The notes under the pieces were generated by a model, which saw only the letters and a list, made by a program, of their open reading frames with translations, did no database searches and was not told the origin of the DNA. Both the position numbers and the translations under genes were made by a program. Below are positions 3,208-58,400 of a stretch of DNA of 64,000 nt, piece by piece; positions within the stretch are counted from its first letter, which is position 1; every line of letters starts with the position of its first letter. Source of the stretch: Euglena gracilis (taxonomy: Eukaryota); contig CP154954.1 in NCBI GenBank assembly GCA_039621445.1, forward strand, positions 28,175,037-28,239,036, in the 5' to 3' direction.

Positions 3208-6200
3208 GTGTCCATGCGGATTGCAGCGGATGCGCTGGTGCCCATCCAGCTGCCCGCACCTTGTGGCCCTATGTGAGCCGCAGCCTCCCGTCCATGAACA
3301 AAGGCTCCGCCAACTCCGCAGTGGCTGCATCCCCCCTGAAGCGCATCCCAACCCCGAAGTTTTCTGTGGTTGAGGTTCCCCTGGTGCAGAAAGAGGAATG
3401 GCATCCAGGCAACCAGGACACATGGCAGCATTTTTCCCCTGCTTTCAGGAATACTCTTGTTGTGTGTTTGCATGAGATATGTTTTGTTTGAAGGTATTTG
3501 AAAGTGATTTGGCGAGATGTTGTAGCTTTGCCATTTGGTTTGATGAACAGTGGACCAAAGTAGAATGAAAATTTCGCTTTTTGACACAAAGCACTAAATT
3601 TTGTTTTCCTGTCAGCTCGCACCCCCCCCCCCAATTGAAAAAAGATTACGCTGTGATTTGATTGCCTGCTGCCAACAGCCCTCCACGTATATCCGTTACC
3701 TGGAAGATGACAACAACGAGGAAGTTAATTATGATGTGGATGCTCTCACTCAGACCTGACCTGAATGGTCCACACGGCGGGGGTTTTTTTGTTTAGGACC
3801 TCTTGGGCTTCTTTTGAAGGAAGTTCACGCCCTGTGGGGGCATGGGCAGGCAGGGGGCAGGGCACAAGGCACCCCCCCCCCCCAGGGGTTACCCGCGCCC
3901 CCTTTGCCCAACGACTTTTATACCGACCCCCAGCCAGGGGTCGTACCCCCCCCCCCGGGGGGGTAATAGAGCACCAGAAATGAAATCTGTGTATATTTGT
4001 AGTGTATATTTTCCCCGATTTTTCAAAAAAGGATGTACCCCCGCTTGATTTTCTCCATCTGGGAAATTGTCAGGGTCCCGCCCAGAAAACCTGATAGGAA
4101 TTTGTCAGCATCCCTTCTATCAGCCGACCCGTCGGTGACAGAACCAAAAAAACATTTGCTTTTTTGCATTTTTGGAAATTGTGATTTGTATATTGGAGGT
4201 CTGTTCTCGACCGCCGCTGGCTTAACATTTACAATGAGAACGTTCCCAAGGCAAACGCCCTCACACTCATCCATGATGCAGCCTGCTTAGGGTTTGAAAG
4301 CTGTGTTGTTTGTGTAGATCATGGTTTTTGTTTTTTGATCGGTTAATTGCAACTCCTTCAATTGCAACTCCCAATTCTAAACAAACAAAAAATTTGCAAT
4401 AGAACAGAACCAGCTGGGATTTAGATCACCACAAACACAAACGTGCAGTATGGGGGGGTTGTCACAGCTTCCAACACTGCAATGTCATTTGAGCCCATCA
4501 AAAATCAATATGCCCCCCGAAGGTTGGTTTATTCTTTTCTCCCAGCAGATATCAGCGTGGCATGTTCTCCCCAGCCAGGCACCTACGGCCGACCAGGGCC
4601 GACCAGGGCCGACTATGATTTTTCAGGGCCCCCGTAGGTGGGGGTTTCGACCAGGGCCGACCAGGGCCGACTTGCATGTGGTTGGCCGACCGAAGGGGAA
4701 TGGATGAAGGAATTCGGCAGCTTTCCCTCTGGAACAAGCACCTCTGATGGTGCTGGGCGTTGCAGGGCGATGCTGGGTGATGCTGGATTTTTGGAGACCA
4801 GAGGTAGGGTTCCGATCAGGCATTTGCTTAAGGGATTGCAGTACCCCGGGGGGGGCTGGACTGCAGCTAGTCCAAATTTGGCTAGTGGGTTTTCTAGCAG
4901 ACCCCCCCGGGGGGGGGGTCTGCTAGCAGGGCTAGCTAGTGGAAAATTTTTTTCCAGTGACCGGCGCGAAGCGCCGAAAATTTTTTGTGGGACCCCCAAA
5001 AATGGCTAAAAATGCCCGTTTATGGGCATTTTTGGAAATTTTTCGAACAAAATCAGCCAAACCCTATTAAAAACCTCATCTTTCCTCCGGCGCGCAGCGC
5101 CGGAGGAAAATTTTTTTTTCCAGTCCGGGGGACCCCCGGACCCCCCCCCCCCCCGGGGGGGGGGGGGGGGGGGGGCTAGATTGGCCACATTTTCCCGTGT
5201 CTAGCCGATTGGCTAGCCAGTACCCCCCCCCCCCCCCGGGGCCTTTAACAAAAGACTGGTTCCGATGCCGGGGGATGTTGGGGGATGCAGGGTGGTGGTG
5301 GGGGATGCTGGGTGATGCTGGCATTATATTGTATATTTTGAAGAATTAAAACCATTTTTGGATAATTTTCTCACAAATATCCAGTTTTACACCCATTTTG
5401 GGCATTATGGATCAGTTTTTGCTAATTTGGGGGCCATTTGTCACTGGTTTGGCAAATATTGGGCTAATTTGGGTCAATCTGAGCATTTTTTATGGCATTT
5501 TGGCCATTTTGCGCCCTTTTGGTAATTTTGGGTCATTTTTCACAATCTTTTGTGGATTTTGTTGGCGTTTTTTGGGTCATTTTTGGTTATTTCAAGCCAT
5601 TTTAGGTCATTTTGGTTGCTTTTGGGGAGCCAATGGAGGCCTTATGGGGCACTTCTTTTTGACCTTGGCGAGACAATTCAGAAAATCATTGCATCCCTTC
5701 GCATTTTTTCTGTGACGGATACCCCCACCTATGGCCGATTATTTGCCGACCAGGGCCGACCAGAGCACCAAAATGGGAAGTGACCACAGGTGCCTGTCCC
5801 CAGCCTATTCCCATCACAATGTTGCAAGGCAATGAGGTCAGGGTCTGGGATGGGGTCTCCACCCCTCCCCCATGTTGTGTGTGTTTCCCTGTCACTCTTG
5901 GGCGCTGGTCCGGGAGGGGGGCTGCGCTGCGCCATGGCTGGGAAATGCTGGAGGCTGCCTTTGATCGGCTGGAAAAGCTGCGCGGCCTCTCCCAAGGCGG
6001 GTTGCCCCCTTGTCCGACCGCTGGCAGTGAACCCGTGCTGGCCTTGTCCGCCCAGCCCTCCTCGCCAGGCCTTGTTTGTCTCTGTGCAGCTGACAAAAGT
6101 GATATCACTGGGGCATTTCTGTGAAGCCCTGTGGCGATTGTGTTGTGGTTGGCTTCGTGTGGCGGAGTTGACCTCAGGTGCGTGGGGTTTGACTTGGGGA

Positions 6201-9200
6201 AAGGACGGCGCTGTGAATCAACGGCGCAAAACCAAAACAAAAAGAAGGATGTCATTTCCGCTTTTTTCTCGTTTCAGTGCCCTTCTGCGCCGTCTTCTGT
6301 GCCCTTCTGCGCCGTCTTCTGTGCTGCATTGCACAGACCAGCCAAGGGCTGTCGCCTGCAGCAGCTCAGCGACATGTATTTCTGGTGGCGGAAGCGGCTC
6401 TACTGCCGGGTGAAGAGAGTGTACCCGTTCGGCAAGCCCTTGCTGCCGCGCTTTGAAGTGCGCCCTGGACTGGCCAATGCTGGGCAAGACTGAACATGTG
6501 AGTCCTGGAAACCCTGGGCAGTGGGTTTGGCTGACCCCTCATTGTTGTTTTCACATGGTGCCGATTTTTGGCCCACATCGTCTTTCGCCACCAAAAAAGG
6601 AGTTTGTAATTTGTAATTTGTGCTGTTTGTGTTCTTTTTAGCCAGAAGCCCCAAAATATAATTTGATATAGAATTTTCTACTAGAACGGAATATAGATTT
6701 GTATAAGCAAATTCTGGTTCAAATTCCTATTTATTCTATGTGAAAGATTCTAAAACGAATTAATTATAGATTTGTTTTTTTCGAGACCCCCCTAGGACTT
6801 TGACAACATATCCGCATCTTGATGTCTCTTTTGCAAAAAACGTTTGCTTGTCAGTTGTGTCTTTGCCTCGTCCAAGCAGCACGCTTGGGTGTGTTCATTG
6901 TGGTCCTGAGCACTGCCCAGTGCCGATCCTTTTGATATCCAGCAACCATTCCACCACCGCGCAAAGGAATCTTTGCAATTTGGTGCTTTTTTGGGTGTCC
7001 TCTGTGAGCTTTTGAGCAATTTGGTGTTTTCCTCCTGTCTGCTTTTTTTGGTGGTTGGTGGAGCAGGCGTTTAGGGGGAGGTGGGTGCATTGCGTTTCAT
7101 TTACGTTTGTTTCTCGTGTTTTGTATTTTTTTTAGTTTTTGTGGCAGTCGTGATTTTGGTTGTGTGCAGTGTTGTGGTCCCGGATATATGCCATGTTATA
7201 GATTGTGAATTACCTGTGAAAATGAGTGGTCTCCACTCATTCTCCTTGACTCGATCCCGAGTTATGAGCCCCTCGAAAGGGCTCTGCGAACCACAAGCTA
7301 AATTTTGGAAGCATAGATTTTGGAGCGACAGGTTCTCGGGCATGACAGTTTCGCGGGGGGGGGTAAGCCCGTTGCTGCCGGCGCACAGTGGCACATTTGT
7401 GGGGTCAGCCAATCGAGCCGTTGGGTGTCATTGCAAAGCTCCGGATCAATATCAAAATAGTTAATCCTCCCCTCCAAGCTGCCTCCTGCGGGTGGTGAAA
7501 ACAGCCCACGACTGTAGAACCTGAGGAGTTGCGCTCCTGAAAACTTGGTGCGCAGGATTGCCCTGGAAACAGGTGTCAAAATCAAATTCGCCTTCTTAAC
7601 ACCCAGAAAAAATGACAGCAGATTCCTTCTTTGGACATTGAGAAGAGTCAAAATTATTTGCGCAACTGTCCCCGGTTCAAGCTGGCCAACACCTCTGCTG
7701 CTTTGGATGATCTCCAAGAAGATGATGCCTATGTTCTTTTCCTGCCGGTGATTTTAGGGATTATGTTTTATCCCCCCCCCCCGATTCCAACGCTCGGACC
7801 GCAAGTTTCACCTGTTCAGAACAGGCTGTATTTTAGTCGGGTGCCAACCCCACCCCGGGACTGGGTGCCTGCCTGGGCAGGCACTCCCGACCCCCCCCCC
7901 CCCCCAGGGGTAGGGTACACGGCCAAAAGTCCCCTGGCACAGACCCCGGTGCCGAAGGTGCCGGGGAGCCAAAAATGGCCTATTTTTAAAGGAATCTGTT
8001 TTGGTGCAGGCCGAAATTCGACCCCCCCCCGGGGGGGGGTAGTGGGGCGCAAGGGTGTAGACCCACCCACGGGAACCACACCAACCACACAAGGTGAGTG
8101 TATTTCCCTACCATACATCTCTTTAAGGACCCCGGAGGGGGGGTGCTGGGCTAGGGCTAGAAATTTGGGCTGGCTAGAAATTTGGGCTGGCTAGCCCGCC
8201 CCCCCCCCCCCGGGGGGGGGCTGGGCCTGAACCGGGGCGAGCTGGACTGAAATCGGAAAAGTGCCCAAAAATGACCTGCAGAACACAGTTTTGAAAAAAT
8301 GATGCACTGAAACCCCCCAAAAATGCCCCAAACGCCCCCCAAACCCCATTTTTGGCCACTTTTGAACACATTTTTTCAAAAAATTTCGGCGCTTTGCGCC
8401 GAAAAATTTTGGGCTGGACCCCCCAAAAAAGGGGCTGGCTAGCTGGGCTAGCAGCACCCCCCCCCCCCTGGGGGGTGCTGCTGCGGCTGGGCTGGGCCCA
8501 AATCGGGGCTGGCTGCAGCCCCCCCCCCCCCCGGGGGGGGGGGTTCGCAAAACCTTAGAGAGATGCATGGTCCCTACAGCGCTGGAATTTCACCAGAGTT
8601 ACTCACCCGGCCAGGGGAGCAAAAAAACAGGACTGGTGTAAGGGGTCCCTGGCCACTCACCACGCAGCAAACTGGGCCAGAAGCGAAGTTAGCGCCGGCC
8701 ATAAACAGTTAGCGCCGGCCATAATCAGGCAAGAAGCCTTGTAACTAAGGGGGGGGGTAGTGCCTGCCTGGGCAGGCACTCCGGACCCCCCTCCCCCCCA
8801 GGGTTGGTAAAAAAAACAGCCTGGTTCGGAACCAGAGATTCAATTGACACCTGCGTGACCCCCGCTCCAGGGGGGGGGTTTCAAGAGGGAGGGAGGCTCC
8901 AGGGGTTTGGACCGCAATTTTTGTTGCCGGAAATGAGGGGGGTCAATCAATTCTGGGGGATGTTCTTTCGAAATGGTGTGTTATTTTTGTGCAGGGGGTG
9001 GGCAACGGAGTCAGGCATCACCTGACAACAACGCCAGCGAGACGGTCTGGAGGGCAGGGATGACTGGGGCAGTTTTAGGGCATCTGCCCAACGAATGCTG
9101 GGAGGTTTTTTGTTCAGCATGTTTTCTTATCAAACCAACCACAGTCCAACCAGCATCAACCATCATCAGGATTCTCATTTTAACTCATTCCTCGGGGCCG

Positions 9201-12200
9201 CATGCCCAACGATGAGGGCGGTCGTTCCATGAGGCATGAGGGACAGCAAGTTTTTTTCTGCTTGAAGGCTGCCGAAAGGCCATTTTAGCGCAGCAGAGAA
9301 GTGGGTCCCCCTTAGACCAGCCCGGATGCACAGCAAGCCACCCTTCAGCCCTGGAGGTGGAGGTGCTCAATGTTCTGCGGCTCATCAAGCGGCGGGAGCA
9401 GATCAAGAAAGAGTATTTCCGTGTGCAATTCCGGATCTGGGACTTGCTCAAACGGGCCAAACCGCAGCTGGACCGCGCAGTGACGACAAGGAGGTGTTTG
9501 TTTTGCGCACATGGGAACACTAATTCAACTGAACTGACAAGCGCAAGAAAACCAAAACCTTCATCCAGCCAGACCTATTCTATAACGTTTTTTTTACAGC
9601 AACCTTTCAATATCAAATTCAATGGAACATTTCAATGGTCACAGGGTTTAGGACAGCATGCGGGAACACCTCCATCAACCACCTCTTGGGCCCAACCTTC
9701 GACACCCATGTCCAGCGTATGTACGGCACCGGTGACCCCCTGCAGACCTCCTCCCATACGAATGGCCCCACATCCCGGAAAGTCTCCAAGTTTCTTCTCA
9801 ACAACAGTTTGCTTGTATACACATGTGAGAGTGGATTGGAATGGGAAGAGATCAACCCCAGCGCATAGCCTGGCAGGCATCAAGGACGTTGCGCAGTTGC
9901 TGGAGCGGTGCCGGATGTACGAGTACCCGCTGCACCGGCTGAAGATTCGCCTGCGGCCCTCCCCAGCCATGCAGGGTTGTTGACGATGTGGACCCCCCCC
10001 CCGCACTGGCACCAGGAGTTTTTTTTTAAGTCTTGAACCCCGGGGGAGGTCCCCCAGGGGGCGGTGAGAATATTTTTCCGCCCCGAAAATTTTCGAAAAT
10101 GGTGCGCTTTTTTGGCATTTTCGCGATTTTTGGCAAAAAGTGGGTGGGGGTCTTTTAAAAAAAAACCCTGACTGGCGTCTCCCGGCCCGCATCAGCTCAG
10201 CTCTGCTTGCCGCCGCCCCGCCTCATGTGCCGTGTGACGTAACGCCGTGCTTCGGCCGCCTGGGGCAGATCATCTGGCCGGTGCGGCTGCCGCTGTGCCC
10301 CGGCCCAACGCGCGCCGATGCTGCAGGTGGCAGTGCCAATGTGCGACAGGGACTGTGCCGAGGGCCCTGGTGTTCATTTATACTCAAGGAAATGAGGAAA
10401 ATTTGTTTAGCATTTTTTTTCGCTTTTGGCAGGGGATGCGTGTTTTTGAAGGCGTACGTTTAGTCAGGAATGATTTTGGAACCACTCATGACGTCACGTT
10501 TTTTTTTGTCCAAAGAATATACAACAAAATTATTGCTTTTTTGGAGACTGAAACTGGCAGGATTCCCACCATTTTTTTTTACCGTGACCAGACGAGGGTT
10601 CAAAATAACTGAGAAGTTGAAAACATGATTTTGTTTCGTTTTGTGGATGTTTGGTGGATGGGTAATGTTCGCCAGGAAAGCATTTTCCTCACTGCAAACA
10701 ATGCCGAGGTCGCAAAATTAACCATTTTTATCTGGTTGGTTTGCCCTCAAATGAAGGAATGCCCTCGGGATGAGATTTTTTGTGGTTTGCCTCCACCCCA
10801 CGGAAGAGCATCGGAGGCACACCGCCTGCCCCAAGCGTCCGACGGGGACACGGGGCCACCGCTTCCAGCCGAAGGGGCTGCCCCCCAACCATACCATTGC
10901 TGAAGGGGTTTCTCCCCCTCACCCCTGGGGGGTGACGGCTGGCTTTTTTGAGAGTGATTGACCGGCCTTAGATCAGGAATGGGCATGACTGAAAGCGGTC
11001 ACCTGCCCCCCAAGAATTTTGGCCAAACTCATTGATTTTGCGCATTTTGAAGAGTGGCCACAGTGACCGGGATGGGAAGTGGATGACTGGTTGTTGAAAG
11101 TGGCTGATTGCTTTTTCGAAATGCGGAAAGTCCCCCCCCCAGGGTACGATAGCAATGGCATCCTCCGACCCCCAACGACCTCCGGCCTGGGACATGGCCC
11201 CCTGCATGGACCTTTGCCACCCCTCGCTGTGGGCGGAACACCGTTGAAATCAGAGCCGGTGCAAGTCCCTGGGGCGGGCGCGGTGAGGGGCTTCACCCCG
11301 ACGCATGGTGTTGATGGATGACCTGGACAACATGGATTGGGCTCAGGCTCGCTGCTTCTTCTCAAAAGGGTTCCCCCCCCATGTCAACACATGCAGCACA
11401 AAGTGATCTTTCAGCTGTTGTTGTGGGGTTGGCCCCCAGGAATCTCGTCAATTCTGTTCCAAAGAGCCAAAGAGGTCCAGGCAGGCTGGATTTTTCAGTC
11501 AAAGCTAGCCAAAAAGTAGTAATTTATTTGGCAAGACCTGGCCAATAAATCCCGTGTCTCCTCTAAAGATCACTCCTCAACGCCATAACAAGACACCAGA
11601 AAAATGTTTTCAAAAACTTCAAAGGATTTTTTTAAAGGTTCTTTAGACCCGTCGACCTTGGTCTTCCAAGGTCGACGGGTCCGAAATCAGAAGTCGAAAA
11701 ATTGTTTTCTTCGATCATGGATGCCGCTCTTCCAGAAAAAAATTCCTGGATTTGGCTTGTTTTGGCCAGATTTTGCAATTTCAGTTGTGCTCGGTCAGAA
11801 GAAATATTTTGCCAGAATGATGTTTTTTTGGCTTTTTGAAGGTATTTTTAGGACGGCAGCATTTGCAGGGAGGTTTCGAGGTCCTGAAGCCGCCTTTAGA
11901 GAATGCAAGGCACCTTAGGTGCCAAAGGAATTTCTTTACCTGAAAAATTAGTGCCCTGAAAAAAAATTGGAAGAGGTGGGCCCACAACCAAGGCAGGAAT
12001 AACGCTGAATAAATTTGACCCCACCCCAACCTGCTGTTTTTTTCCTGTATTTTGCAATTGCAAAAAGGGCTACAAAAATGGAACCTCCCTGGGTGATTGA
12101 AAAACCCTCTGCTCACCAGTGGGATTTCTTGACCTTGGTGACGCAAAGCCCTGCTGCAAATTGGGTTTCGGACACTGATTCTCCACCGCGGAAACGTTCA

Positions 12201-12263: not shown

Positions 12264-13209
12264 TGGTTGCACTCCGGTTTGATTCTGAAGGACGATGCAT
12301 GATGTTATATCGCCAGTTGGCACCGTGCTCTCCAACTCGAGTTCTGAAATGTGCCAGTCTCTGCCTGCGCCAATATTGTTCCACATGGCTGCCATACAAT
12401 ATGTTGCACAATACGTACTTGTTGCATATTGTTCCTCGGGGGGGGGGTCTGCAAGCAGGGCTAGCCAGTGGAAAAATTTTTTCTGTGACTGGCGCAAAGC
12501 GCCAAAAACTTTTTCAGGCCTCCAAAACTGGTTCAAGTTTTCTCCATTTGGGATTTTTTTTGGAACAAAATCAGCCAAAAAAAATTCATGAAAAACCCTC
12601 ATTTCCACCTTGGCGCACAGCACCGGAGGAATTTTCCAGTCGGGTCCCCTGGACCTCACTGCTCAATGAACCCCCCTTGCCCAATGAACAGGGGGTGTAC
12701 AAAATCGTGCCCCCGGAATTCCAGTAACAAGATTTTTGAGAAACAACTCATTCAAATGAAAAAAGTGTCCGGGAAGATGACTTTAAAAGTGATGGGTATT
12801 CCCCCCCCCCAAGCCCAATGAGCACGAAGGGGTTGAAGGGGGTGTTCATTGGGTATGGGACATTCTCTGTGTCGATGGGTCTTTGGTGACAATCTAGACA
12901 TTTGGTGGTGTATGCCAAATGGTCTTTTTGAGGGTTTTCCTCGGTTTTTGGTGTTGCCAAATGCATTTCTTTGGAAGCCTGTTTTGTGGTTCTCTTATCC
13001 CTTCACCATCGCCTTGGGCCCAGGCCAGATTGGAAGGGCGAAAATTAAAAATTCAAAAACGCATTGTTTGTCATGTTTTTTGGTGGTTTGGTGATTGGCC
13101 CAGGCATGCCAGAAGAAAATGGTTTTGATTCCCACCGTCATGTTTTTTTTTTGCCAAAACATGGCACTTTCTTCAGCCATTTTTTCTGTGTATTTTGCAT
13201 TAAATGGAC

Positions 13210-13687: not shown

Positions 13688-13700
13688 GCCGGGACAGGGA

Positions 13701-13739: not shown

Positions 13740-16700
13740 ATGGCCGGCGAGGTGGTGAGCTGTTTCCTGGGGCCCCTCTCCACACTGGTGGCAGCCCACT
13801 TCTGGGACGCCACCACCCAGGCAGACATCGACAGCGATGTCTTGTACCAGGGACCGCCGGGCCGCCGCACCCCCCGCACCCTGCTGGTGGACTTCAAGGA
13901 GGCCGTAACCAGGGCTTCCTTTCATCGTGCCCCCCCCCCCCCTGGACTAAACAGAATCCTGTGGGGGGCTAGGGGCAGACACCCCATAGCACCAATCCGA
14001 CCGGGGGATGGGGTTCAGGGTTTGATATAAGGAAGGTGTACATGGTTTAGGTGGGGGGGTGTCCCCCCTCCCCCCCCCCCTCCTGGCCCGAGGGGGGGGG
14101 CCACCCCCCCCCCCCCCCACCTGCCAGGGGGTCCGGACCGACCCTTGGGGGGGGGGGGGGGTTCCCGGGACCCCCCCCAAAAGGGTCAATTTTTTCCTCT
14201 GGCGCTTTGCGCCGAAAATTTTTTGCATTTTTGGCAAATTTTTGCCCAAAAAGTGCCCAGAATGGCACTTTTGGTCGTTTTGGGTGGGCAAAAATTTTCG
14301 GTCACCCGGACCGCGCCACTGTTTAGGTGGGCTTTTCTCTCCCCCTCCCCCCCTCCTGGCCCGCCCACCTGTCCTTATATCAAACCCTGATGGGGTTTTT
14401 GGAGGTGCCTGCCCATCCCGCCGAACCGGCGCTGGGGGCCCGGAAAAGGCTATTTTCAATGAAAATTTTCTGGGTCCCCCCCCGGGGGGGTGCCTGCTAG
14501 GGGTAGGCACCCTCCCCCCCCGGTCAGTAAGCATAGGTGGGCTCCGTACTGCGCCGGCTGTTGGTGTCAATCTGCTCCCTCTGTCATGGCCAGGATTGCT
14601 CTGAGAAAGGATGCCCATTGCCATCTGTGGAGTATGAATGGCGGCTGGGCGAGCAACTGGAAGGACTGGATTTGAACTCCATGGCGCCCAAGTGGATACC
14701 TCCTGTCCCGATGGCACTGGATGAAGAAGGAGAGGGACCAGATGAGCCTGTTCGCTACCGAGAGTACAGCGATGACCCTGGGGTGTGCCCCCCCGAATGA
14801 CCAGACTGGCAGACTGATAGATTTCCCCATCAGACAATTGCTTAAGCACTGTCCCACCCCCCCCCCCCCCGGGGGGGGGGGGGGCTGGTTTTTTCAGAGT
14901 GACTGACTGGTTTTGGGCCTGGACCCCCTCCCTCCCCCCCCCCCTGGGGGGGGGTCGGCCAGGAGTGGGCAAAAAGTGGCTTGAGTGACCCGGCGCCGAA
15001 GGTGCCGGAAAAATTTTTTTGGCCTAAAATGGCCTAAAGTGACTGGAAAGTGGCCGTTTTTCTGAGTGGCCGACCCCCCCCTCGGGGGGGGGGGGGTAGT
15101 GACTGGCTGGTTTTTTGAAAATGAGTGACTGACTGGTTTTTAAAAAAGTGGAGTGACCCCCCCCCCCCGGGGGGGGCGGTAAGCAATTGTATGTTCCCCA
15201 TCCACTGAGCTTTTCCCTTGAGCTCCTCCCCTTGAGGACTGCCCTTAGGCCTGAGGGCCAACCATTGGGTTTTCGAAGTTGAACAGGGTCGAAAATTAAA
15301 GGTTGAAAATCGCATTTTTTTGACGTTTTGGTTGATGGATGATGACCCAAGGATGCCATTTTCTTCACCACGCCTTCCCGTACAGCCTCCCCCCCCCCCG
15401 CAGTATTTACTCAGACCTTTTTTTTTAACCAAAGCAATTCTTTTTTGTTCCTCACAGCAAGAGAGTCAGAAGAAGAGACGGGTGGATTCTGGCGAGCAGG
15501 AGGCCAATGTCGCCCAGGGGTTGAATGGCAATTATTCACACTGGATGTTCGCTCCCCTGTGCTTGTTTGCAGTTTTAACCTTGACACAGGGATTCTCTGA
15601 GTTGGGTTTGAAGCGGCAAAGCAATCCTGCACCAATCCAAAAGGCGGATATGGAGGTTTGCGTCACAGCCAACCTCTGGGTTTGATTTGTTTTTTCCTCT
15701 TCTTCCATCTGTGACAAATTTGTACAGGTTTGCCCAGCTTGAGATCAACCCCTGTTTTGCGATGCGGAGCAAGCAGACGGTTTGGAGGAGTTGCAACCGA
15801 AACGAGCTTCCAAGGCAGCGCCACTGGGCTGGCAACTAGTGCCTGGCATCATTCTGTATCTGGTGCTTTGCAAACTTGTGGGGTATCTTTGATTTTGCCG
15901 GTGGTTGACCACTGTTTTAACCATAGATCCATTTAACACCGGTGTGACCCCCCCCCCCGGGGGGTTTCGAGAGTGGGTGGGTGGGTTGGGGCCACACCAT
16001 GGCTCAAGGTGTGTCCGATCCCGTGTAGCCACCCGGCGCCAAAGGCACTAGAAATTTTTTCGGATTTTGAATAATTCTTTTAATTTTTGCCATTTTTGGC
16101 GAGCCACCCCCCCCCCCCCCCCAGGCACGAGGCGGAAGTTGAGGGGCACCTCAGTGGAGACACCCTCTTGACCCAACCCCCCCGGGGCAGCCCACCCTGG
16201 GTCACCAATTATTTTAAAAAACATAAAATTTTGGAAAACAACATTGTAACACAAATAATTAATAACACAATCACAGACCAATCCTCGCATAACCCTCTGG
16301 GACATTTTGATGAGTATATTTAAATCAAAATGGGCACCATGAGGGAGTTTGAAGAATCGTATGGTCTTGAAACTGCATCAAAAACCCACATTTGGAACCC
16401 TTTATGGCATTTGCTTTTTGCCAGATTTTTTCAGCACGCAGGGAGAGCAAGGGGAGCCTGGGATCGACAGCTTCCGCACCGGGTGCTTTCTTTAAAGACT
16501 CCTCCAGAGGACGGTTGGTTATTTGGCCGGGCACTCAGAGCAGTATATTGTGCCGGAGCTTCACCCTGACAGCCTGCAGCTGGTTTCCGAAGGAGCAGCC
16601 CGCCACTCCACAGGTTCACCCCCCCTGGAAACTGTCCTATTTGTCCCTTTTGCACCTGCTGGGGGGACCAGGCCGTCGCAAAACATTTTTTCCAGGAGAG

Positions 16701-43400: not shown

Positions 43401-46400
43401 TCAAAGGAGTGTGCCTGGGCGCAGGCCGAAATCCGACCCTCCCCCGTGGGGGGTGGTGGCTGCCTGGGCAGGCTCTCCGGACCCCCCTCGCCCCCCCCCC
43501 CCCCGTAAAAAAAAACAGCCTGATCTGTAGCAGGCTTTTGCTTAAGGGATTGCAGTACCCCCGGGGGGGGGTGGCTGGACTAGCTAGTCCAAATTTGGCT
43601 AGTGAGATTTCTAGCAGACCCCCCCCCCCCGGGGGGGATCTGCTGGCAGGGCTACCCCCCCCCTGGGGGGGATCTGCTAGCAGGGCTAGCTAGTGGAAAA
43701 CTTTTTCCTGTGACCGGCTCAAAGCGCCGGAATTTTTTTTGGGACCCCCCCCCCAATGGCCAAAAATGGGAATTCTCGGAACAAAATCAGCCCAAAACCT
43801 ATTAAAAACGTCATTTCCACCTCGGCGTGCAGTGCCGGAGGAAAATTTTTTATCCAGTTGGGGGGACCCCCGGACCCCCCAGGGGGGTCTAGCTAGTCCA
43901 TTTTTTCCAGTGTCTAGCCGATTGGCTAGGAAGTCCCCCCCCCCCCCCGGGGTCTTTAAACAAAAGCCTGATCCGTAGTGATGATCAAAAGCCAAGGAAG
44001 TTTGGGCTTGTAAAATGCTGTTTGGAGGAGAGGATTAATTTTGTTGATTTTGATCCGGAGCTCTGCAATGACAACCCTCGGCTCGATTGGATGACCTCCA
44101 CAGGTGTCGTGTCCCCCAGACCAGCTCAAAGCCCCTAACCAGCTGCGAAGTTCAGTAATTTGGAGTGGATTACATGATGATCCCCTTACTGCACACCACA
44201 ATGAGCCTCGCGTTGATTCTTTGTCCGCCCTGATTGCTTGGCCCATGTTTTTCAACCAGTGACAGACAGAAGGCAATTGAAACTCCCCCCCCCCCCCGCG
44301 TGTTATTGATCCTCTGGGCTGTTGGCCCATTTTGCCCCCCGTCCTCTGCTGCGCCCAACCTGACCCCCCCCCCCCGAAAAAGGTTGCGCTGAAAAAAGTG
44401 GACTGGGAACCTGCTCGGAGGCGACCATTTCAAACCCCCCCCCCCCCACAAGGCTGGACATCCCCCACTTGTTCAGGTGGATTCATCCCCGGATGTGTGG
44501 CCGCTGTGCCTTGTGATGACCACCACCGTTGCACACCACCGAAATGAATTGTGATTCGTGTACGGAGTCTGGAGTCTGATGGCAATGGGTTGAGATGGAT
44601 TGTCCCCTCAAGAACGCAATTGTCTTGCCCCAGCTGTTTGTTCACATGCAGTTACCCTGAATTGGCATTGGATGGGCTGACATGATGCACATCATATTTC
44701 TCAACACCAGAGTTCACACTGTGATGGCACAATGATTCCCCTGGCTGATCAGCATCCGTCTCTCCAGGGGCACAGAAAACGGGTGGGGCGGCCATTGACG
44801 GCTGCCAATGTGGTGGGAGGGAGGATTAGCTTTGCTGTTTGGCCCGGAGCTCTGCAATGACACCCATAGGCTCGATTGGATGACCTCCACCGGCAGCCAC
44901 AGCCCCTCCTCCTGAATGGCAAGCACACTGGACTGGCGGGAATGCTGTTTTGGATAATGATTCGTTTGTCTGTGGTGCTGTGGTAGGTTGGCTTTGCCTG
45001 GAGAGGGCTCAATTTCCCCCACCCGCCTTCCCCGCACCAGCCCTGGCTCATCCAGGCAAGGATGAGTTAGTTGATCCAGCTCATAGGGATTGTGAAATGA
45101 ATCAGCTTGGAAGGGAGGATTGATTATGTTGATTTTGATCCGGAGCTTTTGCAATGACACCCATCGGCTCGATTGGATGACCTCCACAGGTGACCCTCAG
45201 ACCAATTCAGATCCCCAATTTTGGCACAATGGCAAAGCCCAGGAAATCAGTTCCAGATTACCGTGCGTTGCACCAAAAGGAAAGAAAGCCCACAAAATGT
45301 TTTCGTGCAAATGGTTTTGGTGAGAGCCAAATGCATGTGCTCTGTGGGCGGGGGATTTTCCCCTCCGGTGGGTATCATGTTCAGCATCAGCTGCCCCACC
45401 CACCCCAATTGTTGACCAGGAGAAGGCTTCTGATTCTGATTTGGTGCTTGGCAATGACAGTCACCAGCTCGACTGAATGACCAGCAACAGCCAAGTGCTG
45501 GGGCGAAAGGAAGCGTAACCCCCCAAGTGCCATTCGGGGCAAAGCAAATTGGGTGGACATTGTATTTCTTCAGAAGAGATAATCCATTTGGTGGGTAAAT
45601 TGAATTGTTGGAAAATGGAAGGTGCAAAGGAAGAAGAGCAATTTGTATGAACCACCCAAATATCCTGGCAGTGTACGAACAACCTTGCAAAGGGCAAGGC
45701 AACAAGATTGTTCTTGTCTTTTGGCACCCCGCCAGGTCATTTTGGGAGGGGGTTTTGATTTGGTGGTGAATGCAGTTGAAGGCGTGGAGGCCACCTCCAA
45801 AATTTTTATCCCCCCCCCTCGCCCCAAATGGTACCTTGGGGTTATGATTTTTTAAGGCTCAATTTTTAAAAATTTCAAAGTTTTTTTTGATTTTTGTTTT
45901 AGTTTTGTTTATAGGATTTTAATGTTCAATTTTAAGGCATTTTTTAAAATTTCATTGTATCTCTTTTCCAGGGGAAGTACAAGGGCCATCTGGATGTCAA
46001 ATGGCTTAAAATCAGAAAAAGGTTGAAAACTTTTTTTTTCGAGTTTGGGTTGATGGAGGATGTTCCAGCGATGCCCGAAATTGTTTTTCCCCCAGGATTG
46101 GCCTGTTTTTGCTGAGATATTGCAAAAGCATGTGAAGAATTTCGAAAATTTTCCAGAATGATTTTTTAAGGGTTCCCAAGGACATTCAAGGCACCCTAAA
46201 AGAATAACCCCCTGACGATCCCCCCCCCAACAGCTCCCCAAACCCCCCACACATGCAGCCTGGGTTTTTACCTCCTGCTTGGTTGTGTGTACCGTCAGCG
46301 GTCAAGTTGCTCATATTCCCTCATTTGGATTTCATTCCAAGAGGGGCCGCAAGCAGCTGAGATTTGTGCGTGATTGAATGCAATTGCAGAGACGCTTTTT

Positions 46401-49400: not shown

Positions 49401-52400
49401 TGTTGATTTTGATCCGGAGCTCTGCAATGACAACCCTCGGCTCGATTGGATGACCTCCACAGGCGTCGTGTCCCCCAGACCAACTCAGTGCCCCAAACCA
49501 GCTACGAAGTTCAGTAATTTGGAGTGGATTACGTGATGATCCCCTTACTGCACACCACAATGAGCCTCGCGTTGATTCTTTGTCCGCCCTGATTGCTTGG
49601 CCCGTGTTTTTCAACCAGTGACAGACAGAAGGCAATTGAACCCCCCCCCCCCCCCCGCGTGTTATTGATCCTCTGGGCTGTTGGCCCATTTTGCCCCCCG
49701 TCCTCTGCTGCGCCCAACCTGACCCCCCCCCGAAAAAGGTTGCGCTGAAAAAAAGTGGACTGGGAACCTGCTCGGAGGCGACCATTTCAAACCCCCCCCC
49801 CCACAAGGCTGGACATCCCCCACTTGTTCAGGTGGATTCATCCCCGGATGTGTGGCCGCTGTGCCTTGTGATGACCACCACCGTTGCACACCACCGAAAT
49901 GAATTGTGATTCGTGTACGGAGTCTGGAGTCTGATGGCCCATGGCAATGGGTTGAGATGGATTGTCCCCTCAAGAACGCAATTGTCTTGCCCCAGCTGTT
50001 TGTTCACATGCAGTTACCCTGAATTGGCATTGGATGGGCTGACATGATGCACATCATATTTCTCAACACCAGAGTTCACACTGTGATGGCACAATGATTC
50101 CCCTGGCTGATCAGCATCCGTCTCTCCAGGGGCACAGAAAACGGGTGGGGCGGCCATTGACGGCTGCCAATGTGGTGGGAGGGAGGATTAGCTTTGCTGT
50201 TTGGCCCGGAGCTCTGCAATGACACCCATAGGCTCGATTGGATGACCTCCACCGGCAGCCACAGCCCCTCCTCCTGAATGGCAAGCACACTGGACTGGCG
50301 GGAATGCTGTTTTGGATAATGATTCGTTTGTCTGTGGTGCTGTGGTAGGTTGGCTTTGCCTGGAGAGGGCTCAATTTCCCCCACCCGCCTTCCCCGCACC
50401 AGCCCTGGCTCATCCAGGCAAGGATGAGTTAGTTGATCCAGCTCATAGGGATTGTGAAATGAATCAGCTTGGAAGGGAGGATTGATTATGTTGATTTTGA
50501 TCCGGAGCTTTTGCAATGACACCCATCGGCTCGATTGGATGACCTCCACAGGTGACCCTCAGACCAATTCAGATCCCCAATTTTGGCACAATGGCAAAGC
50601 CCAGGAAATCAGTTCCAGATTACCGTGCGTTGCACCAAAAGGAAAGAAAGCCCACAAAATGTTTTCGTGCAAATGGTTTTGGTGAGAGCCAAATGCATGT
50701 GCTCTGTGGGCGGGGGATTTTCCCCTCCGGTGGGTATCATGTTCAGCATCAGCTGCCCCACCCACCCCAATTGTTGACCAGGAGAAGGCTTCTGATTCTG
50801 ATTTGGTGCTTGGCAATGACAGTCACCAGCTCGACTGAATGACCAGCAACAGCCAAGTGCTGGGGCGAAAGGAAGCGTAACCCCCCGAGTGCCATTCGGG
50901 GCAAAGCAAATTGGGTGGACATTGTATTTCTTCAGAAGAGATAATCCATTTGGTGGGTAAATTGAATTGTTGGAAAATGGAAGGTGCAAAGGAAGAAGAG
51001 CAATTTGTATGAACCACCCAAATATCCTGGCAGTGTACGAACAACCTTGCAAAGGGCAAGGCAACAAGATTGTTCTTGTCTTTTGGCACCCCGCCAGGTC
51101 ATTTTGGGAGGGGGTTTTGATTTGGTGGTGAATGCAGTTGAAGGCGTGGAGGCCACCTCCAAAATTTTTATCCCCCCCCTCGCCCCAAATGGTACCTTGG
51201 GGTTATGATTTTTTAAGGCTCAATTTTTAAAAATTTCAAAGTTTTTTTTGATTTTTGTTTTAGTTTTGTTTATAGGATTTTAATGTTCAATTTTAAGGCA
51301 CTTTTTAAAATTTCATTGTATCTCTTTTCCAGGGGAAGTACAAGGGCCATCTGGATCAGGGATTTTTTTAAGTTTGGACCCCCGGGGGGGGGGGAGGGGG
51401 GGTAGGGTGGGTGGGTCCGCCGGACCCCCTCCCCCCCCCCCCCCGGGGGGGGGGGGGGTATACTTTTCGGCGCCGCACGGGCCGAAAAAATTCTATTTTT
51501 AGCACTTTTCGCGATTTTTCGGCCATTTTTGTGGGTCCCCCGGGACCCCCTCCCCCCCAGGGGGGTGGGTGGGTGGGGGGGACCCCCCCCCCGGTCTTAA
51601 AAAAACCCCTGATCTGGATGTCAAATGGCCTAAAATTAGAAAAAAGGTTGAAAAACTTTTTTTTCGGGTCTGGGTTGATGGTGGATGTTCCAGGGATGCC
51701 CGAAATCGTTTTTTCCCCCAGGATTGGCCTGTTTTTGCTGAGATATTGCAAAAGCATGTGAAGAATTTCGAAAATTTTCCAGAATGATTTTTTAAGGGTT
51801 CCCAAGGACCTTCAAGGCACCCTAAAAGAATAACCCCCTGACGATCCCAACAGCTCCCCAAACCCCCCCACATGCAGCCTGGGTTTTTACCTCCTGCTTG
51901 GTTGTGTGTACCGTCAGCGGTCAAGTTGCTCATATTCCCTCATTTGGATTTCATTCCAAGAGGGGCCGCAAGCAGCTGAGATTTGTGCGTGATTGAATGC
52001 AATTGCAGAGACGCTTTTTATTCCTTCAGGCAAGAACCCTCTTTTGGATGAGGCGGTTGTGTGGTGCTGTGGTGGGTTGAGTGAGTCGAACCCACTCATC
52101 TGGTGTTGCCTGGTTCAGACACCCAACCACAGCCTTGGCCCATCCAGGCAAGCAGAGGTTGAGAATTGAATGGTCCGAGGTTTTTTTGGAAAAAAATCCC
52201 TGCAGTGGTCAAAAGGACAACAAAATTGGGGATTGTGAGTTTCTGACAGAAGGCAGCTTGGAGGGGAGGATTAACCATTTTGATATTGATCCGGAGCTTT
52301 GCAATGACACCCATCGGCTCGATTGGATGACCCCCACAAGTGTGCCACTCTGCGCTGGCAGCAGCGGGCTGATCATCTCCGCAAGGTGGGGAATGGTTTG

Positions 52401-55400
52401 CGGATTGACATACACAGGGGCGGGAACTGGAATTAGTGTGCATTTTGATTTGTTTGAGAATTTGAACTGCAGGGGATATGAATGCGAGGGACGGACGGAA
52501 GGCAATTGACACAGGGAAGGGCAAGCGGGAACCAGTTTTGGCAATGCATCTCCACTGCACCAAATTGTAAATTGTTGAGATGTCAATTGTAAAAGGTTGC
52601 AATCTTATTGAAATCGTATTACAATCAATGTAAGTTGTTATAAAGGGAAAGGAAAGTACATACGCCAGTTGTGTTTGCTCATTGCGTTTTGGGGCCAGAG
52701 GATGGATGTGAATCTCGTTGAACCGAACGCATTGTGAAGGAGATGGCTTGGATTGCTGACCGCCAGTTGGGGAGGTTTGTTAGTTGTTGAGAAGGGAAGG
52801 GAATTTATCACAGTGTGATTGTGATGAAGGACTGGGTCTCGCAGCGCCGGTTGTGGGGCATCCTGGTGCGCACCTGCGCTTGAGGACACGGTTCCTTCGG
52901 CCCTGCCTTGTCACCCTCGGACCACGTCTCGGGGTCCGTGATGGCAGCGTACGTCGTCAGAGCGCAAATGCGAGCACCGGACCACCGTTGAGGCAGTCGG
53001 GCGTTGGTGGCGGACGTGTTCACCTGGCTGTACCACCCACACCGAGTGTTCGCACGTCCCTCACGCACGCGTGCACGGCCCAAGGGGGACACACCCGCTC
53101 CCTGAACGTTCCTTTGTGTGTGTGCGGCCACGGGTTTCAAACAGTGGCCGCCGTGGGCAACAACCAGGGGGGGTCCCCAACGCGCGCACATGGGCACGAC
53201 ACTTTCGGGATGCTTCGCCCCTCTGGCCTGGCCGTTGAACCCACGCCACGGGGTCCCTCGTCCACACCTCAATTGGACACACCTGCGCCCGAAGTGTGTG
53301 TGTCCCCGTGCGCAGGTGCGCGCGGTTCGGTGCTGGGTGTGGGCCCATCTGGCTCGGGGGTATCCAACACGGCGGCGGTGGGCTTGCAGCCCCTGTGTGC
53401 CTGATGTGGGTTCCGGAGTCCTCCGGTGACCGACTTTCGGTCCTGCAGCGATCGGTGGGTTCTGCAGGCGTTGCCCTCAAAACAGAGTGTGTCCCCTCCC
53501 TGCCGCCACTCATTCCGGGGCCCCAGCACACAGGCACCTGCCACGATCTCACGGTAGGATCGCGCGCACCTGCGCTTGATCTTACTGATCCGTCGTGCGC
53601 ACCTGCGCCTGATTTTGGGGTCTGCTCAAGCGCAGGTGCGCGCGCCGGACGTGTCCTCACGGGCGCAGGTGCGCCCCATCGCGTCTTTCGTTCGGTTCAT
53701 GTCGTTCCCAGTGGGGGTTTTGACCACAGCCGGTCCCAAAACCGCGGACGATCCGGTTTTCGGGCCCGAAAACCCTTAAGTGCCATTACTGCCGCCTAAG
53801 TTTTTTAGCTTCTTTTGGCCACTTTGGCGAAAAGAGTTGGCTAGAGTGTCCTCAAAAGGCTTCAGAAAGCTGCTAAAAGCAGTCAAAAGCAAACAGTGGC
53901 CAAACGTTGGCGAAATTGGCCAAGAATTCTCAAAAGCAGCAAAAAGTATCTGAACGTTGGCACAGATGGCCAAAGCGCAGCAAAAAAGCGGCCAGGGTTA
54001 GTGTTAGGGTGTCGTGACAGCCAGAAGTTGAAGCAGCCCAAAGTGGGCAAAAAGTGGGCAAAGAACGCCAAAATGTGGCCAAACAACAAATGGCCAAACA
54101 GCCTCCCTCAAAGTTGGGATGGTTGGGATCTCTGTTGGCGTGCTGGGCTTGACTGGGCACGATTGGGCCTGGGACTCTGGATGACCATAGGTGCTAGATG
54201 ACCTCCACAGGTGTCCCTCAAACCAATTCAACTCAAACCAATTCAGATCCCCAATCCAGCTGCCATGGCAAAGCCTAGAAAATCAGTTTTTTTTCCCGGA
54301 TTATTGTGCAAGGAAAAGGCCAATAATTTTCAAATTGCCTGTGCCCCCCCCCAATATTGAGCCGTCTTGGAGCATTCCCAAAGAATTTCCAGCGCCCGGA
54401 GCTCACCCAGGTCTTTTTGCTTCATTTCTGGACTGCCCTGTTTGCCCGCCCCTCGCAGGACCGCTTTGCCCGCCGCCGGGGGAGCCTGCCCCACCTGCGC
54501 AGCGAGGAGGAGGGGCTGGAGCTGTTCGGCGCCGGCAGCCCCGCCCTGCACAGCCTGGTCTACGCCGCACCGCGGCCCTACCCCATCTCGCCCCCGTTCC
54601 ACTGCCAGCGTTTCCCCGGTCCAAAACGATCTCCGGTCCAAAACGATCCGCTGCACTGGCAGGGGGGAGGAAATGTGTTTCGAATTTTTGCGCATTTTTT
54701 GCGCATTTTCCGAATTTTTGGGAAATGCGCATTTTTTCGCATTTTTTCGATTTTTTTCGCGCATTTTTTTTGCACCTTAAGAATTTCTGGCTTTTTTTAC
54801 ATGTTGCAGTTTCATTTTGGCTTTTTTGATTTTGATTGTATATTATCAAATTGCTCTTTGATCAATGTTGTATTGACGCTGAGTTATGTTGTTTGATTTG
54901 TGCTCTGTTCTGACCCTTTTTGAAAGAAATTTTTTGCGCATTTTTCCCATTTTCCCACTTTTTTTTTACACTTTTGGAAGCATTTTGTCGATATTCAAAA
55001 AAAGCTTTGGGTGATCAGGTGTGGGTATTCATCCAATGATGATGAGGACACTAGGGTTTTCAGAGACCCCGCATCGAATCCTACTCCCCAGGTCACAAGT
55101 AAGAGGCACCATGGCTGACATTGTTGGTTATGGTGAATAGAGAGTGACGCCTTGCTCATGCATTTTTTTTGGCCAAAAATGCCTTCATTTCAGCTGTTTT
55201 TGGTGATTTTGGTTCAATTTTGGGCTCATTGTTGGAAATTTTTCTAAGTCTTTTTTCCATTAGGAATGTACAAACTCAGCGCATTTTTTGCGCATTTTTC
55301 CCGAGGGCCGCCCAGCGCATTCCCCCCCCCCCCCTGTACTGGTTCAGAAGAAAGGAAGGTGATAAATGAAAAGAAAGCCGGGCAATCGTGTGGAACGGAT

Positions 55401-58400
55401 ATACCTGAAATGGGTGTGGTGTTCATGGTGCCCATTTTTGTGCGGTGGTTGCTGCGTGTGGTGGCACCACACCGTGGTGGAGTGGTCTTTGTCATGCTTG
55501 CGATTGCTGTCCGGAGACAGTTGGCAGGGTATGAACCATTGGGATGGGCCCCCGGCAGTGTTTCCAGCTCACATCTTGTCTTCGACCCTGGACGCCAAGG
55601 GTGTGCTGCCTGCTTCGCTCTCCTGTCTCATTCTGGGTTGAAGCTGAAAAATGGGGGGGATCCATAAATGTCTTATTTTGGGCAAAATTAAGAGTTTGAA
55701 GTGAGAAAGCCTTCTTGGCTTGCAAATCCCAAAATGATCCACACACACCATTTGGGGTTTATAAATGGCAGGGTTGTGGCGTGGAACAAACAATGTGTGC
55801 ATTCTTGGGGGTGAAGTGGAAATTGAACAACACCCAAAAAAAACAATATTTTTTGTTCTGTTTTGGCATTGCTTTGTTCTTTGGACGCTTTCGCCCACCA
55901 TTCCAGGTGATTGGTTTGCCAAACAGGTGTTCCAACATCCGATTTGAATCAGCCAATTCCCTTCTCGCAGGGCACATTGGTGAAGGGAGCCCGTCGCAAG
56001 CAAGCTGAGCCACCGGGGCAGGTGTTCTTTTGATGGCAAAGGGCGGATAGAGGTGTAGCAAAGCTCGGCGCCCACTGGCAAATTCACCCCCGCCTGACAC
56101 TGACACGGGTGGGGGTGCCTTTTTTTCCCAAGGGAGGTGGTCAGAATGGGTGAGTTTTTAGTGGGCTGCCCCCCCCCCCCCAGGCCTCATCCCTCCACCC
56201 TCGTCGCCCCCCTCTTCCCCATGTTAACGATAATTCATTTTTCCATGTTTTTTTTTGTGTCATTGCTCTTGAATGTTTTTGCAGTGTCTATTTTTGGCTG
56301 TGCCCACAGGCCATTTTTGTGTTTTTTTTCTGCAAATAATTTTCCCCTTTTTTGACCCACAAGTGACCCAATATTATTTCCAGCAAATCCGAACATACAA
56401 AGAGGAACAGGAAAAAAATTTCCAGCTTTACCCTCTGACACCCCCCCATCAAGGTCAGTGTGGGCACCAATTTTTGGAACGCATGGTGGCCACTGCCTCA
56501 GCTTGCCATCAACCCCCATCCATCCCTGCAACAGACCCACCCATCTCTCCGGGGGCAGTGCTGGAGATGCCCATCGCCAGCCATTTGGCCACCACCCCTG
56601 CCATCCATGGGCACTTGCGCTCCATGGCAGAGAGCTTCTCTACCGCAAACCACAGGCTCCTGCCGAATTATGGTCGTGACCACGGTTCTTTTCCATGTTT
56701 TTCCATCATCAGGCAGCCGAGAGTGTTTACGTGCCTGATGCAGTGAGGTTCTAAGAATGCAGGAATGCAATGCTTTGCCAAAAAAATCACATAGACCTCG
56801 TTCTGGATGTTTGAATTGTATGTATTGTTTTGTTCAAAAAATTGCCAGAAGCTGTCCCCAGTTTTCCAACTCCCGTCTTATGTATTTTTCTGAGCAAAAT
56901 AAGTCGCATGCCACACAGCATTGGTGTGGTGCTTGGGTCTCGTTTCAGGGGAGGCTGCCTCTGCAAATGCAAAGTTTTTTCTTCACCCCAACAATCACAC
57001 CAACAACATTATTTCCTGACAGGGCCACGGGACCATATGAGGCGGGAAGTTTTTTTTTGCTGAGGACCACCATCAGGCCTAATTGACGTTTGGGCTGGTT
57101 TGGCAATGATCCAACGATGCCAAATGAGGTCTCCCCTGTGTGGATTGTTTTCCCTGAGGATTTCAAATTCTCCCCCGTTTCTTATGGATGTTTTTGGTTG
57201 ATTATGTTGGGACCAGTCATTTTTTTAAGCACCGGCCGCCCCCCCCCCCCCCCGGGGGGTGACTGGTTTTTTCAGAGTGACTGACTGGTTTTTGGCCCGG
57301 ACCCCCTCCCCCCCGGAGGGTGGTCGGCCAAAAAATGGGTTGACCCCGGCGCCGGAAAAAATTTTTTGGCCTAAAGTGACTGGAAAGTGGCCGACCCCCC
57401 CCCCCCCGGGGGGGGGGGGGAGTGACTGGCTGGTTTTCCCAAAATGAGTGACTGATTGGATTTTAAAAAAAAAGTGGAGTGACCCCCTCCCCCCCCCTGG
57501 GGGGCTCGGTAAAAAAAATTGTATGGTTGGGACCAGGGCGGTCCATGAGGGACAGGATATTTTTTTTCTTTTGTCAACCTGGTTTTGCAAAAATATGACC
57601 ATTTTTGGTCATATTTTTGGTCATATTTTTTCCTGTAGATTTTGCATTGAATGTGCTGGGACAGGAAGTTTCACAAACAAAACAGAAGGTTGTGCTGTCC
57701 AAGCCAGGGCGGTCCTTGAGAGTGCAAAGGGGAAAGGGACCGTGGTCCGACGTTGATGATTGGCGAGAGGCAAAGGGCCAGGAGGGTGCCAAGGGGGCCG
57801 CACGGTGGCTGAACCCCCTCCCCGCCGTGGCAACCACGCCAGAATGGCAGTGGGGGTCGCATTCAACCAAAGCAGCCGTAAGCGCATCTGTGGTTCCATT
57901 GAGGTTGGGGTTCAAACCCTCATAACGGGGTACGGGGGTGCTCCCCCTCCTCCTGGACGAGAGGAGGCTCCAGACCACCTCCCCCCACCTGCCAAGGAGG
58001 TCTGGGCACCTGGGACCCCAAAAAATCAACATTTTCCTTCCGTGCTTTGCGACGACAATTTTTTGTTTTTCTGACAGGTTTTTGTTTACAAAGGCCCAAA
58101 ATGGCAATTTCGGCCATTTTCAGGGGCCAAAATTTTTTCGGCCCAGCTCTGTTCTTTGCACTCTTTGCCCTCATTTACATCGAATGCCTTGGGTGTTTGG
58201 GTTGGGGCAGGGTTTTGGGGGGGGGGCAGGGGGGGTGGTTGTTTGACAGAAGCAGGTGGGTGACCCCCTGGGGGTCACCAAGTGACCCGGCTTTGATTTT
58301 TTCGTGAGGAAGAGCTGGTCACCCTCTTGAGCCCAACACGTTGTATTCCCTTGTTGATGAGTATGCAGACGGAGCAATGTGCAGTGAGGATGAAGATGGC

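Follow-up and report, generated by a model that had tools for sequence, protein, structure and literature searches.

The window analysed here is a stretch of 64,000 nucleotides (nt) of Euglena gracilis DNA (assembly GCA_039621445.1, contig CP154954.1, forward-strand positions 28,175,037 to 28,239,036), and positions are counted from its first letter. Its sequence has the character of euglenid nuclear DNA. It contains an EPL1-domain gene extending from 3294 to approximately 9985 and a Misato/DML1-type gene spanning 13740 to about 58400, both interrupted by introns without GT-AG borders, together with a set of miniature transposable elements bearing inverted repeats (MITEs); the relation between these introns and these MITEs is the subject of the present analysis. 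The exons are defined by two transcript-derived orthologues from a related species, P0005 (306 amino acids, aa; Pfam EPL1, PF10513; 84% identical) for the EPL1 gene and P0003 (603 aa; Pfam Tubulin_3, PF14881; 80% identical over the query exon) for the Misato gene. Both were retrieved with single-exon queries and then mapped onto the window by tblastn, after which all in-frame donor/acceptor pairs near each gap were scored by alignment to the orthologue; support for the junctions is at the amino-acid level and comes from another species rather than from same-species RNA. A total of 22 introns are defined in the two genes, 16 non-GT-AG and 6 GT/GC-AG (Table 1). The ten introns of the EPL1 gene, identified by orthologue mapping and junction scan, are all non-GT-AG, and the Misato gene combines six non-GT-AG with six GT/GC-AG introns, two of the latter (15547-16509 and 55612-56458) being uncertain. 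The stop near 6491 is not the end of the EPL1 gene but falls inside the fifth intron (6468-6925); this and the five later EPL1 introns had been missed by a previous reading of this DNA from its letters alone (the sequence-only reading). A search of the whole window against Rfam returned no matches.

Six introns (3403-3673, 3748-4208, 4269-5941, 6063-6356, 17514-17728 and 57776-58334) had been proposed by the sequence-only reading to lack GT-AG, to have complementary ends and to restore the frame when 3 nt before and 5 nt after the inverted repeat are also removed. All of these coordinates hold. GT-AG ends are absent from the six, positions +4 to +6 are occupied by CAG in five and by CAT in 4269-5941, positions -8 to -6 are occupied by CTG in four, by ATG in 4269-5941 and by TTG in 57776-58334, and 9-12 of 15 positions can pair between the two ends. 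P0005 and P0003 cross the six junctions colinearly with no residue gained or lost, which is support at the amino-acid level from another species. The proposed bounds share the top junction score in five cases, and 17514-17728 lies two points below the top. We give very little credence to the idea that the cell uses other sites and that one or more of the six junctions are therefore wrongly placed: under amino-acid scoring a junction can shift by 1-4 nt, and 17518-17732 scores 2 points above 17514-17728, but no GT-AG pair lies within the shift allowed for any of the six and the 3/5 register gives the best or near-best score in all of them. The purine expected at the start of the downstream exon is present in five of the six and in 11 of the 12 introns with 3/5 spacing.

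The nonconventional splicing code was set by knock-ins as N3-CDG...CH'G-N5-6|R (Nomura et al. 2025), with a 5' spacer of strictly 3 nt and a 3' spacer that is best at 5 nt and tolerated at 6; the strict code is present in 61.2% of nonconventional introns, and such introns were still spliced after knock-in to a foreign exon (PMC12501133). Four of the six introns fit this strict code, the exceptions being the variants 4269-5941 (CAT/ATG) and 57776-58334 (CAG/TTG). Judged by their sequence, the six are members of the nonconventional class already described for euglenids and represent known biology. Intron 3403-3673 retains its CAG/CTG terminal helix in both the minimum free energy (MFE) and the centroid fold, and this helix is the only meaningful part of the fold, which over the whole of 3398-3676 is unremarkable (z -0.65). 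The same two folds also display a second helix of 5 base pairs (bp) outside CAG/CTG, formed by the spacer-and-exon flanks UGGCA (3398-3405) and UGCCA (3669-3676). P0002, a protein of 137 aa that a database holds from a public assembled contig, continues from the Misato exon into intron 17514-17728 (17319-17730) and therefore derives from unspliced RNA or DNA.

The pairing of the ends extends to all non-GT-AG introns of the two genes, is far above chance and splits the two intron classes cleanly: end-duplex energies range from -12 to -31 kcal/mol in all 16 non-GT-AG introns and from -3.3 to -8.3 kcal/mol in all six GT/GC-AG introns of the Misato gene. The two spacers add up to 8 nt in 12 of the 16, while two introns have a sum of 9 and another two a sum of 7, and the strict 2025 code is satisfied by five of the 16. 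The bounds of the six additional EPL1 introns (6468 to 9859) are accurate to a few nt only. Intron 56678-57748, with ends matching at 12 of 14 positions and a duplex of -31 kcal/mol, is flanked by GTCGTGAC and GTCCGAC. Between this intron and the next nonconventional one lies a Misato micro-exon of 27 nt, or 9 codons (57749-57775).

The MITEs were sought by an inverted-repeat scan of the full window, with flanks displaced by ten shifts as controls. Pairs of CA-starting ends that match at 12 or more of 14 positions, and whose 8-nt flanks match at 7 or more, number 13 in register and 0-2 per shifted control. Among the CA-starting candidates, exact flanking repeats are most frequent at 8 bp, with nine cases as against none at 7 bp, and the non-CA inverted-repeat candidates display zero exact 8-bp flanking repeats. 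Thus, the 8-bp flanking repeat is specific to CA-starting pairs. Once the internal duplications of the window are collapsed, 11 distinct CAG/CAT-ended insertions are counted, more than the at least nine with 8-bp target-site duplications (TSDs) of the sequence-only reading; the duplication matches 8/8 in six, 7/8 in four and 6/8 in one. Their inverted ends span only about 14-18 bp, with 11-18 of 20 positions matching between the two ends. All 22 half-sites start with CA (CAG in 18, CAT in 4), and the ends follow a common consensus of approximately 16 nt, comprising a CAGGC start, a T-rich tract and a TTAAG-like motif. Three families are represented by two insertions each with differing duplications (4817-5258 and 43531-43970; 7822-8823 and 43251-43522; 14831-15193 and 57214-57525).

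The best proof of MITE mobility is the filled site at 51357-51611, whose empty counterpart at 45988-45995 lies in the adjacent copy of a 5.4-kilobase (kb) repeat, the flanks differing by one base in the compared stretches. The near-palindromic duplication of this MITE is able to pair with its own second copy when folded. At 43251-43970 two MITEs of different families adjoin, with three duplication copies in the order ATCCGTAG, ATCTGTAG, ATCCGTAG, and it looks as if the second element had inserted into the duplication created by the first. Long G-run and C-run palindromes occur in repeats and MITEs (e.g. 4840-4920, 5130-5240, 14870-14950 and 35540-35620); they swamp naive inverted-repeat scans and may constitute another repeat family. 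A metagenome scan with an 18-nt MITE-end motif returned 16 loci, none of which had both an inverted partner matching at more than 12 of 18 positions and a duplication, so that they count as chance hits.

Inverted ends of hAT elements are short and start with CAG or a TAG-like triplet, CAG ends being widespread in this superfamily. The MITE duplications, tallied as ten with the adjoining elements at 43251-43970 entered once, carry T at position 2 in 8/10 (p=6e-4 against window composition) and A at position 7 in 8/10 (p=1.5e-4, same reference). This corresponds to nTnnnnAn, which has been quoted as the target consensus of Hermes, a hAT element (PMC2803484). The 8-bp duplication length, the CAG ends and the nTnnnnAn consensus together support the assignment of the MITEs as non-autonomous, hAT-like elements. 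As to the hAT nature claimed by the sequence-only reading, the fit of the duplications to nTnnnnAn speaks for it, and the matching transposase, sought among the 27 open reading frames of the window, was not found there, the hAT domain of Pfam being present in 0/27. This negative result and the CAT instead of CAG at some ends would also suit real MITEs of another superfamily that duplicates 8 bp, in which case the link to introns may still hold; such an origin is improbable given the 8/10 and 8/10 agreement with nTnnnnAn and the short, CAG-starting inverted ends.

The terminal triplet of the MITEs is the same triplet that was critical for splicing in the 2025 knock-ins. Where a duplication t1 to t8 stands on both sides of CAG...CTG, cutting with the 3/5 spacing takes t6-t8, the element and t1-t5, and leaves one intact t1 to t8. 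The sum 3+5 equals the duplication length of 8, and an exonic insertion in either direction would therefore be removable without a scar. The proposal of the sequence-only reading that splicing removes the element plus exactly one TSD thus holds arithmetically, and the 3/5 spacing on which it depends is in print (PMC12501133). Exons should retain the original target if the introns are old insertions. The target was rebuilt from the last five exon nt and the first three nt of the next exon at the 12 introns with 3/5 spacing, a small sample in which the registers depend on the 3/5 rule. T occupies position 2 (exon -4) in 7/12 (p=0.004), A occupies position 7 (exon +2) in 7/12 (p=0.003), C occupies position 8 in 9/12 and a purine occupies position 6 in 11/12, the last two being counts given without a p value; the GT/GC-AG introns display T at position 2 in 2/6 and A at position 7 in 2/6. 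The hAT target consensus thus appears weakly visible in the exon flanks, and this weak signal at positions 2 and 7 is counted as further support for the link between introns and MITEs.

Several observations weigh against that link. In the exon flanks, A at +2 is not unique, as A is found equally in 7/12 at +4 and +11, the contrast in T at position 2 between nonconventional and GT-AG introns is non-significant (Fisher p=0.31), and the pyrimidine|purine step at positions 5|6 is not evident in the MITE duplications (4/10 and 6/10). The precise junctions derive from amino-acid alignment and the 3/5 rule, not from RNA, and seven of the 16 introns have stems other than CAG (AAG, TGG, GAC, CCC, CAC). 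The 8-nt flanks of the stem match at a mean of 2.69/8 over the 16 introns, compared with 2.66 for mismatched partners (permutation p=0.51), and at a mean of 2.92/8 in the 12 introns with 3/5 spacing (p=0.31). When introns were compared with the window by BLAST, none of the 16 matched a repeat family through its ends; ten have no match in the window and six match through nested repeats only. When scored on a profile built from positions 4-20 of the MITE ends, with each MITE left out in turn, intron ends range from -16.5 to +3.0 and 10 of the 11 MITEs from +1.5 to +16.6, and this separation indicates two populations rather than a series. Finally, none of the 11 MITEs is found in an exon; their locations are introns, the very long intron-9 region and a 3' flank.

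A continuum from fresh MITEs to old introns is thus not present in this window, residual duplication being at chance and 0/16 introns being family members, and the series from perfect inverted-repeat elements with TSDs to stem-only introns described by the sequence-only reading is not upheld. The excess of TSD identity at intron stems and the grouping of intron termini with MITE families, both of which it had anticipated, fail on the 16 introns of the window. The decayed 5/8 TSD that it reported at 3403-3673 exists, but is within chance because flank matches equal the mismatched-partner mean. Intron 56678-57748 is the only candidate intermediate, its flank pair being suggestive. Intron ends nevertheless score modestly above control CAG sites on the MITE profile (-7.8 vs -11.6, per-intron Mann-Whitney p=0.004). 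The shared ends, with intron gain still ongoing (PMC4770533), could be turned round to make the MITEs escaped introns that gained mobility, for which nothing direct speaks; family-specific sub-terminal motifs of the MITEs are absent from the introns and the empty/filled site is located outside any exon, and this reverse direction is in our judgement scarcely credible.

The lack of residual duplication at the 16 introns and of any intron belonging to a repeat family would also be compatible with coincidence or convergence, whereby introns arise otherwise, through double-strand-break repair or reinserted intron circles, and the unrelated MITEs happen to match them in CAG ends and an 8-bp footprint; the generally common occurrence of CAG ends among hAT elements points the same way. 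An 8-nt repeat at a recently gained intron of gapC in E. agilis was indeed ascribed to break repair by its authors (PMC4770533), and circular intron RNAs have been reported (PMC11282704). Coincidence, however, needs three independent chance matches, in the end triplet, in the equality of the spacer sum and the duplication length and in the exon-flank consensus, and break repair predicts neither exactly 8 nt nor nTnnnnAn; we regard this explanation as unlikely.

Descent of the nonconventional introns from hAT-like MITEs is the reading that we favour, as moderately probable. According to this proposal, hAT-like MITEs with CAG ends would land in exons and make 8-bp target duplications; the pre-mRNA would pair both ends of the intron, and an activity, probably non-spliceosomal, would cut at two points, 3 nt before the 5' CAG and 5 nt past the 3' CTG, and then join the exons. 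The element and exactly one copy of the duplication would be cut out, leaving the message unchanged in either direction of insertion. Most nonconventional introns would descend from such insertions, and those whose duplication reads pyrimidine|purine at positions 5|6 may have been retained because they splice well. The transposon side and the geometry of the sequence-only reading are well supported, and the descent is what we infer from the intron geometry, MITEs, 8-bp duplications, empty site and hAT-type consensus seen in the window, taken together with what is known from print, namely the 3/5 rule, circular products and the ability of these introns to be moved to a foreign exon. A broader version, which we hold tentatively and place slightly short of even, is that the Euglena hAT-like MITEs are 'born-spliceable' introners removed by a non-spliceosomal activity that measures 3 and 5 nt from the transposon-end helix, that a hAT target-site footprint accounts for most of the published exon-side junction preferences, T at -4, a purine at +1, A at +2 and C at +3, and that bursts of insertion created most of the approximately 70% of introns reported as nonconventional in Euglena.

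Table 1. Coordinates of nonconventional introns, MITEs and the empty site in the 64,000-nt window.
Feature	Position	Strand	Description
EPL1 intron E1	3403..3673	+	nonconventional: 3 nt, CAG ... CTG, 5 nt
EPL1 intron E2	3748..4208	+	nonconventional, CAG/CTG
EPL1 intron E3	4269..5941	+	nonconventional variant, CAT/ATG; two nested MITEs inside
EPL1 intron E4	6063..6356	+	nonconventional, CAG/CTG
Six more non-GT-AG EPL1 introns	6468-6925, 6961-7633, 7716-9029, 9052-9358, 9485-9693, 9742-9859	+	orthologue mapping, junction scan
Misato intron M1	13907..14622	+	nonconventional, 3/4 spacing; contains MITE 14016-14389
Misato intron M5	17514..17728	+	nonconventional, CAG/CTG
Misato intron M8	19321..19393	+	73 nt, nonconventional, CAG/CTT; absent from the sequence-only reading
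Misato intron M10	54590..55553	+	non-GT-AG, CCC/GGG stem; weakest end duplex (z -0.5)
Misato intron M12	56678..57748	+	nonconventional, CAC/GTG; contains MITE 57214-57525
Misato intron M13	57776..58334	+	nonconventional, CAG/TTG
MITE	4576..5796		1221 bp, CAG..CTG, duplication TCCCCAGC 8/8; within E3
MITE	4817..5258		442 bp, duplication GTTCCGAT 8/8; nested in 4576-5796; family of 43531-43970
MITE	7822..8823		1002 bp, duplication 7/8; within EPL1 intron 7716-9029
MITE	8112..8569		458 bp, CAT..ATG, duplication 7/8; nested in 7822-8823
MITE	10013..10170		158 bp, duplication 6/8; ~25 nt beyond the EPL1 stop
MITE	14016..14389		374 bp, ends 14/14, duplication ATGGGGTT 8/8; within M1
MITE	14831..15193		363 bp, CAG..ATG, duplication TTCCCCAT 8/8; within GT-AG intron 14783-15457; family of 57214-57525
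Two adjoining MITEs	43251-43522 + 43531-43970		common middle copy of duplication ATCCGTAG/ATCTGTAG
MITE, filled site	51357..51611		255 bp, duplication ATCTGGAT 8/8
Empty site	45988..45995		single ATCTGGAT in paralogous repeat unit
MITE	57214..57525		312 bp, CAG..ATG, duplication GTTGGGAC 8/8; within M12

Other repeats surround these features. A block of 20.6 kb with the entire EPL1 gene and Misato exons one to nine is present twice in tandem (135-20697 and 20711-41361, 97.7% identity). The copies meet exactly at 13 N (20698-20710), as if two haplotypes or paralogues had been placed head to tail in scaffolding, and the Misato gene thus appears 45 kb long. Between the two copies, 24 of 26 forty-nt intron ends are identical. 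The long Misato intron-9 region contains tandem units of approximately 5.4 kb (40680-45995, 46062-51356 and 51662-52836; 93-98% identity), one of which has a MITE insertion that is missing from its neighbour. A repeat of approximately 124 bp (93% identity, no obvious inverted ends) occurs at 7366-7488, within EPL1 intron 6961-7633, and also at 20581-20697, 41245-41368, 46626-46748, 52247-52370 (opposite strand). Starting just beyond the end of the Misato gene, the minus strand of 58684-63510 has two overlapping frames of 1608 and 997 aa. They contain a reverse transcriptase (PF00078, E 5.9e-12) and two weak matches, one to a tyrosine recombinase (PF00589, E 2.7e-4, below cutoff) and the other Dam-like, a layout that recalls a DIRS-like retroelement.

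The origin and the removal mechanism of euglenid nonconventional introns are questions standing since the 1990s. A MITE origin was proposed in 2014, at which time no euglenid transposable element had been identified (PMC3935182), and the description of the introns as terminal inverted repeats plus TSD-like repeats is already in print (PMC3935182, PMC11282704). The 2024 review presents CAG/CTG as inverted ends with duplication-like repeats, its available text making no mention of hAT, '8 bp' or '8-bp' (PMC11282704), and the 2025 paper calls the intron origin unclear, the terms 'TSD' and 'hAT' being absent from the part available (PMC12501133). Our literature searches found no paper tying Euglena introns to hAT elements or to an 8-bp duplication. 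The general MITE origin is therefore an old idea and the hAT/8-bp link seems to be unpublished. The window provides actual elements, marked by the signature of a superfamily, as candidates for the source, and 3+5 = 8 gives a numerical reason why such elements could enter exons harmlessly. If true, descent from hAT-like MITEs ties together three published facts so far unlinked: the rule of 3/5 spacers, the A that occupies +2 in the downstream exon of 43/55 introns (Milanowski et al. 2016, PMC4770533), and the eight-nucleotide direct repeats of the recently gained, strain-specific nonconventional intron of E. agilis gapC (PMC4770533). The nonconventional share reported for E. agilis is 71.8% of introns.

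Compared with known systems, the six introns first listed do not differ essentially from the euglenid nonconventional introns described previously (Milanowski et al. 2014, 2016; Nomura et al. 2025), with which they share ends without GT-AG, CAG/CTG pairing, an end-to-end helix, the downstream purine (5/6) and the presence of GT-AG introns in the same gene, although two of the six (CAT/ATG and CAG/TTG) fall outside the strict code. The MITEs differ from those of the hAT superfamily (Hermes/hobo/Ac type) in that no autonomous partner or transposase is seen among the open reading frames of the window, and resemble them in the 8-bp duplication, the nTnnnnAn target, the short CAG-starting inverted ends, the small non-coding bodies and the independent insertion of several families. 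The third comparison is with introners, both those known from Micromonas and Aureococcus (Huff et al. 2016, cited by PMC11282704 and PMC7789003) and the hairpin introners of Amoebophrya, which carry 3-5-nt repeats (PMC7789003). Introners are recognisable family copies with the duplication visible at their borders, whereas the introns of the Euglena window are not family copies (0/16; profile at most +3.0) and have border matches at chance, suggestive only at 56678-57748. The published introners are cut by the spliceosome and their duplication is of 3-5 nt or supplies the AG, whereas in Euglena the cuts would lie at fixed 3/5 distances from the helix and the duplication measures 8 bp. What the systems would have in common is a DNA transposon with inverted ends that enters an exon and is removed with one copy of the duplication so that the message is restored, and in Amoebophrya, similarly, hairpin ends draw the junctions together.

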